Below, one piece after another: positions 44,842 to 61,784 of a stretch of 64,000 bases of DNA (its first letter is position 1; every line of letters begins with the position of its first letter). Origin of the DNA: Escherichia phage CMSTMSU; the sequence record MH494197.1; one strand, written 5' to 3'. Under the pieces are notes generated by a model that saw only the letters and a list, made by a program, of their open reading frames with translations, was not told the DNA's origin and did not search any database. The position numbers were made by a program, and so were the translations under genes.

Positions 44842-50045
<5,204 letters not shown>

Positions 50046-50076: not shown

Positions 50077-50152
50077 TTGATAAATAATATCATAGAGATC
50101 AGGGAATATTGCCTTAAATTTAAATGTGGTTTATATTTTTGATAAATAATAT
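50077..50152. promoter_or_regulatory. divergent promoter region with two copies of TTGATAAATAATAT
   Basis: exact 14-nt direct repeat at 50077-50090 and 50139-50152, the second 44 nt upstream of the ATG at 50196. Confidence 0.35.
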
Positions 50153-50195
50153 TAAGCAGGGTGTTCCTGCACAAAATTTGACAAGGAGATTTTTA

Positions 50196-50792
50196 TGAGT
50201 CTTAATTCTTTTAACCGTAACTATGGTATGTCTGCTACTGCTCGTGAATACTGGGTGGTAACAATGGTTTCGTAACCATCGTTGTTGATCTACCAGCAGA
50301 TGTTGAAGTTGGTACTACCGCTGTTACTTCTGACGGTTCCGAAATTCAAGATGAAGCACTACAAACTGCAATCAGCAATGCTCAATACAACCAATTCATG
50401 ATTACCCAACTACTACAACAACGTGCAGTACTAGTTACTACTTCCGTACTAGCTCTAGACACCGCTGTTGTTATCCCTGCTGACTTTAAAACCGTTGGTG
50501 GTAACGTAATCGCGTTTGGTACTAGTGGTGCTGATGTTGCAGGTGGTGCTGGTTCTGTTGCTCTAACCTTCATCTGTGAACGTCAAGACGTATTTGACAA
50601 ACAAGAAGTTCGCCCGTGCTGCTTACTCTGTTCCAGTTGATCCAACTGTTGAACTAGCTAAAGCTATTGCACAAGCTAAATTCTTCCGTACCAAATCTTA
50701 TGTTGCTCTAGGTACTGATGGTGTTGGTGATGCTGCTGCCGCTGACGCTGTTGCAATTAAAGTTCGTGCTGCTCTACCAGTACAACTATAAT
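50196..50792 (+). CDS. probable abundant late protein, paralog A (unknown function), frameshifted
   Basis: AAGGAGA RBS 7 nt upstream of ATG; gct/cgt/act/cta codon usage matches the capsid gene; LLQQRAVLVTTSVLALDT...FICERQDVFDK. Confidence 0.5.
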
Positions 50793-50805
50793 AGGGGACT
50801 ACAAT

Positions 50806-51494
50806 ATGTCTAATACTAATACTTCTTTGAACGTATCAATGGTTATTCCTTTGATAAAATTCTAGGTTACTTCTGTGGCAAAAACGCCCTAGCATCTATC
50901 GCAATTAGTAAAATTGGTAATGTTAACGTGCGTGTTACTGGTGCAGTTGGTTCTTTCGCTGGTCTACAACGTTTCCTAAACACTGACGTAGCTGATGAAA
51001 TCGTTGCATATCTAAACGAAAAAGGTATCATCCGTATCGATGGTACTCCATTTGAAGCAGCAACTCTAGAAGCTGATTATAACGCTGCTTACGCTGCACA
51101 AACTAACGTTAAACGTATCGTTGATGTTGTTCAACAACGTGCAGTTATCATCGCTACTTCCGAAATCGCTGGCAACGACGCTGAACCATTTGCAGTTACT
51201 GGTTTTACCAACGCTGCTGACGGTATCCTAAGTGTTGGTGCTGTTGATATCGCTAGTGCTTCAGTAGTTACTTTCCTCGTTGAACGTGCTAACGTATTTG
51301 ATAAAGATATTCAATCTTTCCAAGGCGTTCCAAGTACTGAAATCGAAGAAGGCCGTCTACTAATCGATGACCTAACCGCAGTTCCACTACTTGCTAATGA
51401 TGGTGTTACTGAAGTTGTTCTACGTTCCCAAGCTGCTGATGCTGCGGGTGACTTCGGTATCAAACTATTCAAATTCATCCCAGCGATGGTTTAA
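50806..51494 (+). CDS. probable abundant late protein, paralog B, frameshifted
   Basis: ORF 50928..51494 plus N-terminal MSNTNTSLNV; VVQQRAVIIATSEIAGND...FLVERANVFDK parallels paralog A. Confidence 0.5.
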
Positions 51495-51511
51495 TAAATT
51501 AAAGATAAAAG

Positions 51512-51540
51512 AAAAGGAGAGCTTTTGCTCTCCTTTTTAT
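51512..51540. terminator. strong bidirectional rho-independent terminator
   Basis: AGGAGAGC-TTTT-GCTCTCCT hairpin flanked by A-run and T-run, between convergent genes. Confidence 0.75.
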
Positions 51541-51689
51541 TTGTATGAACGAAACCCTTCAGGTAAACCGTAGATTCTCTAACCCTTCGTTCGCATTCAC
51601 TAGCTTTACGTCATAATCATCACTGAAATCATCCGTAGCTAGTTTACGCCCCATGTCTCTAACGAAGTTGTCAATAATTTCTTCTTCGT

Positions 51690-52250
51690 CATTGCGGATG
51701 ACCTTCCGCTTTTAACTTTTTCCAAAAGTATTCATTATAATCAAAACAAATTCAACTTCATTTGTTTCTGGATTAAGTACTACATCCAAATCAATCCAAG
51801 GTTCTTTACGTAAAGTAAAGATTTCCTTTGAATACTCTTGTTGTGTAATCTCTTCATAACGATATGCAAACTCGATAGCTTTAAGACGTTTGTCATCACC
51901 ATCAGGCATTAGTTCGATTACTTCCATATCATACTCTTTTGAGTAATTGCACCAGTACTTAATTTAGCATCAAGTAATTTTACATTATACTCATCACGGG
52001 TAATCTTGGAATACTTCAATTGTACATCTGCCTGTGCTATTAGATAATCAAGAGTTTCTAATACATTGTATTTCTTTTGATATCCAACTGTGCTATATCA
52101 ACTTCATATGGTGTTAGATATGTAAGTTCTGCAACTAACATATCAGCTTCATAATCATCGTTATAGTAGTATGCTTTCGCAATCTCTTTCGCTTTACCAG
52201 AAAGTCCCCAGTGAGCGGGACCATCCAGAAAGGAATAAACCTTTTTTAGC
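51690..52250 (-). CDS. hypothetical protein, frameshifted
   Basis: ORF 51712..51927 plus upstream frame MAKKVYSFLDGPAHWGLSGKAKEI. Confidence 0.25.
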
Positions 52251-52261
52251 CATTTGATTTC

Positions 52262-52547
52262 TTACCAAAATTTCTTCAATTTTCATCACATAATATGTGT
52301 CTTCACCACCACCAAGATCTTCAGTGATAGGAGTGTTTAGTGATGAACGACCAAATACAACCATATCACCAACACAAATATTATGTTCTGCAATTTGTCC
52401 ATTAGGTAGTACTTTACCTTCACCAACTGAAATCACCATACCAACACATGGTGGTTCAACGTTTCCTAGGATAATACCACCAGTACTTTTGTTCTGTGCT
52501 TCAATTTGACGAACCAGTACATAATCGTTAATCATTTTAATTTTCAT
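52262..52547 (-). CDS. groES: GroES-like co-chaperonin (Cpn10)
   Basis: MKIKMINDYVLVRQIEAQNKSTGGIILGN...VGDMVVFGRSS..YYVMKIEEIL; the listed ORF 52194..52631 has extra N- and C-terminal residues. Confidence 0.6.
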
Positions 52548-61732: not shown

Positions 61733-61776
61733 TATTATCTCCTTAAAGATGTTATATTCGTTTTTCAGTATGATAT

Positions 61777-61784
61777 TATTTATA
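61777..61784 (-). promoter_or_regulatory. T4-type late promoter TATAAATA upstream of the capsid gene
   Basis: exact TATAAATA on the minus strand 45 nt upstream of the gp23-like start. Confidence 0.5.

Follow-up and report, generated by a model that had tools for sequence, protein, structure and literature searches.

Two paralogous virion genes of a RaK2-like jumbo phage form a highly expressed late operon and may encode accessory proteins of the capsid shell

What is made, and for which part of the particle, by two small adjacent plus-strand genes, here called A and B, in Escherichia phage CMSTMSU? The pair lies within a 64,000-nucleotide stretch of sequence record MH494197.1 (the window). 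A first-pass annotation, prepared from the sequence alone, described A and B as a tandem pair with no placeable function, probably abundant virion or late proteins and possibly a divergent decoration or tube-type pair. Our analysis indicates that A and B constitute a self-contained, very highly expressed late operon whose layout is conserved in 15 phages, and that their orthologues are major proteins of the particle. The best explanation as a whole, namely a late operon of two abundant virion paralogues together with a role in the capsid shell that we infer, has in our judgement about an even chance of being correct.

The first point to settle was whether the locus encodes two complete proteins. 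Three-frame translation requires two frame changes to read gene A and one to read gene B, and the list of open reading frames (ORFs) contains fragments only, of 80 amino acids (aa; 50398-50640), 71 aa (50576-50791) and 188 aa (50928-51494), the last being all that the source record annotates for gene B. The earlier description of a tandem plus-strand pair of ~198 and ~229 aa is right in that both peptides quoted from it are present and both lengths are recovered upon repair (199 and 229 aa), but neither gene is an open frame in the window, the earlier reading having crossed three frames unremarked, and its start at 50196 is one base late, the ATG being at 50195. Base-by-base alignment with phage BF17 identified the bases absent from the window: one G after 50252 (GGGG to GGG) and the dinucleotide AG after 50615 (CCAGG to CCG) in gene A, and one T after 50825 (TTTT to TTT) in gene B; further bases are absent from non-coding homopolymers nearby. 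In intact relatives gene A measures 600 nt and gene B ~690 nt, and both frames are uninterrupted in nine close relatives and in all more distant ones.

Lesions of this kind are not confined to the pair. Over 22 kb (positions 40000-62000), the comparison with phage fEgEco12 gave 100 deletions of 1-4 nt and no insertions, ~1 per 220 bp, with 77 located in homopolymers and 16 in CCWGG, the Dcm methylation motif (together 93/100). Neighbouring essential genes are broken likewise, the RNase H gene appearing as three ORFs. Homopolymer shortening and errors at Dcm sites are typical faults of the R9.4 nanopore chemistry. The tools behind the CMSTMSU genome were Albacore 2.1.3 and Canu, applied to MinION R9.4 reads, and its publication mentions no polishing (PMC6256653). 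Because the errors are exclusively deletions at homopolymers and CCWGG sites, the relatives are intact and the assembly is an unpolished MinION one, we conclude that the frameshifts in A and B are nanopore basecalling deletions and do not reflect biology. The alternative, that they are real and mark decaying pseudogenes or programmed frameshifting, takes at face value the three frame changes that the window as given demands for the two proteins. It is scarcely credible, considering that the same type of lesion recurs about every 220 bp, essential genes included, that the relatives are in frame at all these positions, and that the probable source genome is an unpolished MinION assembly of 2018. 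Programmed ribosomal frameshifting as such was rejected, as the genes of the relatives are uninterrupted and the lesions are deletions in GGGG, CCAGG and TTTT. Systematic deletions of 1-4 nt probably affect the whole window and leave most of its genes fragmented, and split genes, short ORFs and frameshifts at any point of its length are best taken for artefacts unless they recur in relatives. The errors at CCWGG also suggest Dcm-type cytosine methylation of the phage DNA; phAPEC6 is reported to encode a C-5 cytosine methyltransferase (PMC7247149).

Are the two genes related to each other and to anything else? A and B align in BLASTP with E=1e-6 and 35% identity over 83 aa, a segment that spans the QQRAV...ER..VFDK core, and both match one family essentially from end to end: phrog_9326 is hit by A with E=2.8e-82 (residues 1-199 on profile positions 1-195 of 195) and by B with E=3.5e-80 (residues 4-229 on positions 2-195 of 195). 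The internal similarity seen at first pass is thus confirmed and, judged from these alignments, A and B are true paralogues, with 27-35% identity between them inside any one genome. The composition rich in Ala, Val, Gly and Thr that had been described holds for both, and both are acidic, with isoelectric points (pI) of about 4.4-4.5. The A/B region is 98.1-98.6% identical to that of nine Asteriusvirus-like jumbo coliphages, including BF17, fEgEco12 and Ecwhy_1, and ~81.5% identical to that of 121Q. Orthologues of gene A are RaK2 gp107w, 121Q gp618, phAPEC6 gp210, CBB_271, GAP32_265 and JP4_CDS0720, and those of gene B are RaK2 gp106w, 121Q gp617, phAPEC6 gp211, CBB_270, GAP32_264 and JP4_CDS0719. 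The RaK2 pair and its orthologues agree with A and B in sizes, tandem order, neighbours and the layout of promoter, ribosome-binding site and terminator; there is no biological difference, and only the copy in the window bears sequencing deletions.

The family is confined to one group of phages. Searching with B by tblastn returned 73 phage records, all RaK2-like jumbo phages, infecting Escherichia, Klebsiella, Salmonella, Erwinia, Yersinia, Serratia, Cronobacter, Pectobacterium, Xanthomonas and, in one case, Vibrio. An exhaustive phmmer search over 1.8 billion cluster representatives gave 17 matches, and a profile search of a 5.8-billion-protein set recovered the same family only, unnamed or labelled 'structural protein'; neither search yielded a named distant relative. 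The expectation that related genomes would carry the same pair was borne out in all 18 loci compared, drawn from Asteriusvirus, Alcyoneusvirus, Mimasvirus, Eneladusvirus, phage XaC1 and Vibrio phage 2.275.O, each with the order RNase H (-), A (+), B (+), virion protein gene (-), GroES (-). Within the group of coliphages and Klebsiella phages, orthologues are 72-99% identical; for those of Mimasvirus, Eneladusvirus and phage XaC1 the figure is 55-64%. As far as database sequences indicate, the PHROG 9326 pair is restricted to RaK2-like jumbo phages, all of which carry it. The family itself is already known, from the literature (RaK2, 2013) and from PHROGs, as an uncharacterised virion protein family, and its PHROG label is 'virion structural protein'. 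Vibrio phage 2.275.O (locus L010, 1131-3202) has three tandem members, of 227, 184 and 234 aa, the extra copy, NVP2275O_488, being A-like (E about 1e-13). An ATAAATA stands 63 nt ahead of the start of each of its first two copies, and a hairpin follows the first gene. The three tandem copies show that the family can expand by tandem duplication.

To define the transcription unit, the signals that flank the pair were compared across phages. The 15-mer ATAAATAATATCATA occurs exactly twice in the window, once upstream of gene A and once at 61769-61783 (-), 37 nt before the capsid ATG; a copy with one mismatch at 46177-46191 (-) lies just upstream of a structural gene, the orthologue of fEgEco12 g370. 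For CBB and GAP32 the same consensus, similar to T4 TATAAATA, has been put forward as a late promoter (PMC5259590). A second motif, GATAAATAATAT, stands closer to gene A, with a gap to the ATG of about 38 nt vs 37 nt at the capsid gene. The proximal ATAAATA is found 52-63 nt before the start of gene A in 15/15 phages and the distal one 115-128 nt before it in 14/15; transcription of A and B most likely begins at these two tandem motifs of the T4 late-promoter type. The T4-like late-promoter motif ATAAATAATAT... marks the capsid gene, the fEgEco12 g370 orthologue and gene A.

The strong AAGGAGA ribosome-binding site noted at first pass is present ahead of gene A, and among 16 upstream regions listed, 15 keep AGGAGA. 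The hairpin that separates gene B from the virion protein gene converging on it from the minus strand had been called the strongest terminator of the window; in a window-wide scan it does rank first, if narrowly (-18.8 vs -18.2 kcal/mol for the next). It is retained in all relatives with compensatory changes in the stem, whose arms read GGAGAGC/GCTCTCC, GGAGAAC/GTTCTCC, GGACGC/GCGTCC or GTCCGC/GCGGAC depending on the phage. Taken together, transcription most likely initiates at the two tandem late-promoter motifs and stops at the strong bidirectional hairpin, translation is aided by the strong ribosome-binding site and by optimal codons of the capsid type, and the operon is thereby insulated from the oppositely oriented genes around it, which encode RNase H, GroES, the sliding clamp and DNA polymerase. 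The coordinates are collected in Table 1.

Table 1. Positions of the two genes and of their putative expression signals in the window
Feature	Position	Strand	Remarks
Gene A	50195..50791	+	597 nt as given; repaired product 199 aa, 20.7 kDa
Gene B	50806..51494	+	689 nt as given; repaired product 229 aa, 24.3 kDa
Distal late-promoter-like motif ATAAATAATATCATA (T4-type TATAAATA class)	50080..50094	+	Upstream of gene A
Proximal late-promoter-like motif GATAAATAATAT	50141..50152	+	ATAAATA core 53 nt before gene A ATG
Shine-Dalgarno AAGGAGA of gene A	50183..50189	+	5 nt before ATG, read from sequence
Weaker Shine-Dalgarno-like AGGGGA of gene B	50793..50798	+	AGGGGGA in relatives; one G absent here
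Bidirectional intrinsic terminator	51511..51538	.	12-bp stem, 4-nt loop, T-runs on both strands

How strongly is the operon expressed? Codon-usage correlations with the capsid gene were computed on the error-free relative fEgEco12 and on 121Q in place of the window. In fEgEco12 the values for A (0.95) and B (0.93) are the highest of 20 genes; in 121Q they are 0.91 and 0.90. A, B and the capsid gene all prefer CTA, GCT, CGT, GGT and GTT. A capsid-like bias is also seen in the scaffold and gp32-like proteins (both 0.90, 121Q), the sliding clamp (0.86, fEgEco12) and RecA (0.83), with lower correlations for the sheath (0.82), the tube candidate gp552 (0.69) and the portal (0.59) of 121Q and for a tail fibre (0.49). 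Because the gp32-like protein, clamp and RecA share the bias and low-copy late genes such as that of the tail fibre do not, the bias of A and B is one of expression level, roughly tracking copy number, and is not a marker of late genes. The 'late codon usage' of the first-pass annotation accordingly stands as a capsid-like bias, but the bias signifies high expression and not lateness. The preference for CTA is pronounced: it makes up 0.81-0.92 of leucine codons in the capsid gene, A and B vs 0.05-0.3 in low-copy genes (fEgEco12, 121Q). CTA is a rare leucine codon in E. coli, and the 64-kb window contains no tRNA gene to explain the preference.

The particles of related phages provide a direct view of the products. 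In RaK2, gp106w and gp107w are among the few labelled bands of the virion gel, at their predicted sizes, and were described in 2013 as 'two distantly related' abundant virion proteins (PMC3622015). Mass spectrometry of CBB virions placed CBB_270 (B) at the top of 55 proteins with 91.3% coverage, CBB_271 (A) reaching 56.4% (PMC5259590). Coverage in phAPEC6 virions was 69.8% for gp210 and 69.9% for gp211, with the capsid protein at 74.9% and the sheath at 68% (PMC7247149). In the JP4 dataset, the abundance of B (1.37e8) is second to that of the capsid protein (6.55e8) and is followed by the sheath (1.21e8), with A at 2.6e7 and the tube candidate gp552 at 1.3e7 (PMC12648861 supplement). The N-terminal peptides of both A and B in that dataset have lost the initiator methionine only (PMC12648861 supplement), which implies that the N-termini are intact in particles. 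With orthologues identified by mass spectrometry in four published virion proteomes (RaK2, CBB, phAPEC6 and JP4), the prediction of abundant virion or late proteins is well founded; the fEgEco12 paper and the JP4 main text contain nothing specific on the pair.

Using the sheath as a ruler, with 150 copies in 25 rings of 6 (PMC7247149), we converted the JP4 values into copy numbers. Two normalisations, one per expected tryptic peptide (similar to intensity-based absolute quantification) and one per length, returned 1580-1840 copies of the capsid protein vs 1620 expected, and on the same scale 430-660 copies of B, 120-140 of A and 60-75 of the tube candidate gp552. Division by the number of peptides quantified gave about 315 copies of B and about 210 of A. 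With raw values B is about equal to the sheath (ratio ~1.1), but the capsid protein is then underestimated twofold. B appears to rank second in abundance among the proteins of RaK2-like particles.

An AlphaFold model of B was built on 71 sequences, and A was modelled in a fused A-linker-B run of 458 residues, designed to probe for a heterodimer, in which the A half relied on 13 sequences; unpaired A-type sequences were excluded from the fused alignment, having aligned to the B half in a MAFFT trial. B alone is predicted with a predicted local distance difference test score (pLDDT) of 80.2 and a predicted template modelling score (pTM) of 0.77, as a mixed helix/sheet protein with a 26-residue helix, and the A half is mostly at pLDDT of about 70-89. 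The order of elements is predicted to be alike in A and B: an unstructured N-terminal arm, one strand, the 26-residue helix and then a mixed sheet, which bears a short helix at the ER..VF motif, and last a C-terminal strand; B has two additional helices ahead of the long one. The fused run reached a pTM of 0.61 though 78/458 residues are disordered, where ~0.4 would be expected if the halves were placed independently, hinting that A and B may be in contact.

The statement that no motif could be placed is upheld by these searches: Pfam scans of A, B and all 71 family members gave no consistent match, and searches of PDB sequences with A, B and the family profile gave chance-level matches only. 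The models of the two paralogues, for which structure prediction had been proposed as a check, share their layout; the B model has no meaningful match in the PDB, where Foldseek found nothing at E<0.05 and no TM-score above 0.2, and in BFVD, a set of predicted viral structures, it matched only family members and a few unnamed proteins of uncultured phages. No tube, Hcp or gpV structure is among the fold matches listed for B. The models suggest a common alpha/beta core with family-specific additions, a fold that gives no direct pointer to function and, as predicted, is clearly not a tail-tube, HK97, immunoglobulin, beta-tulip or jellyroll fold. phAPEC6 gp211 (locus L003, 4001-4690) carries the GenBank name 'hemagluttinin repeat-containing protein', for which no family member gives Pfam support.

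In which part of the particle, then, do the proteins reside? We favour the view that A and B are accessory components of the capsid shell, at a probability slightly short of even. The capsid fits best with a copy number above tail stoichiometry, a codon bias second only to that of the capsid gene, the lack of processing and a fast divergence. Between fEgEco12 and 121Q, identity is 80% for A and 82% for B, compared with 99% for the capsid protein, 97% for the tube candidate gp552, 93% for the sheath and 88-95% for neighbouring genes, a rate that would fit proteins exposed on the surface. Two independent low-resolution maps, of 121Q and phAPEC6, contain outer capsid proteins without an assigned gene (PMC7247149, PMC5646251), visible in those maps (10 Å) as ridges between the capsomers and as a dimeric to trimeric fibre anchor at the hexamer centre. 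A and B would account for these unassigned outer densities on the T=28 capsids of the two phages, the targets being the ridge network and the fibre-anchoring protein at each hexamer centre. A particle would contain several hundred copies of B and a smaller number of A, and the two may touch. Attachment would occur via the nearly invariant N-terminal arms, folding only against the partner. In A, 18/26 of the first residues are invariant across 13 phages vs 45/173 in the rest, and the arm has a pLDDT of about 30 in the fused run; residues 1-20 of B are at 48-55. That the arm of A is better conserved than any other part of the protein and yet predicted to be disordered on its own suggests that it folds only against a conserved partner. 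The capsid of phiKp24, as seen by cryo-electron microscopy, is different, with T=27 and a single capsid protein.

A location in the tail was the proposal of the RaK2 authors in 2013, who suggested that either A or B polymerises into hexamers stacked within the sheath and builds the tail tube. In favour are the size (21-24 kDa) and the abundance, the lack at the time of any tube protein recognisable by sequence (PMC3622015), and the raw JP4 ratio of B to sheath, which at about 1.1 is near equimolar. This proposal now seems very improbable. In 121Q, the three genes that immediately follow the sheath gene encode gp552-554, whose annotation is tail tube and which match phrog_4542 (E=5e-86), phrog_13438 and, weakly, the general tail-tube family phrog_45 (E=5e-4), whereas A and B match no tail-tube PHROG or Pfam family and lie tens of kb from the sheath gene (~80 kb in record coordinates, 121Q and phAPEC6). 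They are the fastest-evolving of the structural proteins compared (80-82% vs 97% for gp552), their codon bias exceeds that of sheath and tube candidates, and the mixed helix/sheet model of B is not a tube-type beta-sandwich. The ratio of B to sheath in JP4 is 2.1-4.4 when the capsid-to-sheath ratio is reproduced (1.1 raw), a stoichiometry that is only suggestive. A and B are thus similar to T4 gp19-type tubes in size and abundance and dissimilar in predicted fold, adjacency to the sheath gene and divergence, and separate gp19-like genes co-occur with them. The tube-type option of the first-pass annotation is disfavoured on the same grounds of predicted fold, gp19-like genes beside the sheath gene and divergence rate.

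Alternatively, A and B could coat the tail from outside, as a decoration of the sheath surface or as anchors of the hair-like tail fibres. In phAPEC6, 121Q and CBB the tail bears fibres that have no assigned gene and, at two levels, a decoration protein, and the estimate of 120-210 copies of A is close to 150 sheath subunits. The estimate for B is 2- to 4-fold the sheath, though, and the tail decoration of phAPEC6 amounts to a few rings, too few copies for proteins covered to 70-91%. Considering further that the pair is strictly conserved among phages whose tail appendages are very different (RaK2 vs CBB and GAP32), we regard a tail coat as improbable.

A third possibility places the proteins inside the head, as parts of an inner body or packaged with the DNA and possibly ejected. 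phAPEC6 and 121Q have an inner body of 91 x 18 nm made of unidentified proteins (PMC7247149). Estimated from its size, this volume could take several hundred copies of a 24-kDa protein, so that copy numbers in the hundreds would fit. The inner-body proteins of phiKZ are abundant tandem paralogues, which also speaks for an internal location. In T4 and phiKZ, however, internal and inner-body proteins are substrates of the prohead protease, which targets and trims them, whereas A and B keep their N-termini in JP4 virions and run as full-size bands in RaK2. The phage encodes a T4 gp21-like protease; in RaK2 the apparent size of the capsid protein is slightly smaller than predicted, a difference that the authors ascribed to possible cleavage (PMC3622015). 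No sequence similarity to the phiKZ inner-body or T4 internal proteins was detected, fast divergence suits an exposed protein better, and the acidic pI of about 4.4-4.5 indicates no obvious affinity for DNA. An internal location is, on balance, unlikely, and the remaining probability goes to roles other than capsid shell, tail tube, tail coat or head interior.

The capsid-shell placement has its own difficulties. To match the capsid protein one to one, a ridge protein would have to number ~1620 copies, 2.5- to 5-fold above the estimate for B, and the ridge density may be a domain of the capsid protein, according to the phAPEC6 authors (PMC7247149). The presence of the inner body in 121Q and phAPEC6 likewise leaves another destination for abundant proteins. 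The copy numbers derive from a single label-free dataset without replicates and vary with the normalisation, raw B being about equal to the sheath; the argument for contact between A and B is drawn from the pTM value of a model whose A half was built on 13 sequences. A more specific version, in which A and B form a small hetero-oligomer with a novel decoration fold at the centre of each of the 270 hexamers, docked by the arms and anchoring the capsid 'hairs', is somewhat unlikely. The summed estimate of about 440-870 copies of A and B corresponds to 2-3 per hexamer, which we consider numerology, not evidence.

If A and B do belong to the capsid shell, the closest analogues would be decoration proteins such as T4 Soc and Hoc, lambda gpD, phage L Dec and T5 pb10. 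The likeness, an inferred one, is to small, acidic, very abundant, unprocessed late proteins encoded outside the core cluster of head genes, present in numbers between those of tail and capsid and evolving faster than the capsid protein. Among T4 early genes, soc too stands alone as a late gene, which is a lead and not a test. Differences exist as well: no sequence or fold relationship to any of these proteins was found, and A and B are two paralogues. The decoration option raised at first pass is plausible.

What the present analysis adds to a known family is the diagnosis of the sequencing artefact, a quantified late operon with its conservation, the case against the tail tube and a case, unproven, for the capsid shell. 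After more than 10 years the pair is still labelled only 'virion structural protein', and the sole published functional guess, the tail tube, is probably wrong. Placing A and B in the particle would fill a gap in the structural inventory of phages that are being developed for E. coli and Klebsiella therapy, and proteins that are abundant, surface-exposed and unprocessed, if this is what they are, would offer a natural site for display or engineering.

Two neighbouring genes deserve mention. The convergent gene at ~51600-52330 (-) is the orthologue of 121Q gp616 and RaK2 ORF105 and is called 'virion structural protein' in the annotation of several relatives. Its codon usage is unremarkable (correlation with the capsid gene 0.57-0.59), it is missing from the phAPEC6 virion list, and its structural status looks weak. 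In the gene for the large terminase (window 47547-47569 (-); locus L001 433-455; fEgEco12, locus L005 7590-7612), one extra C follows CAG ATG relative to 121Q. The extra base falls exactly at the Walker A codons, after which the zero frame soon stops, and skipping it (a +1 shift) restores a Walker A reading like that of 121Q. The nine close relatives all have a stretch of this length, and in annotations the terminase is divided into two coding sequences. Because the base is common to nine independently assembled relatives, it is not a nanopore error; judged from the sequence, the terminase could be expressed by a programmed +1 frameshift or be a genuinely split gene.

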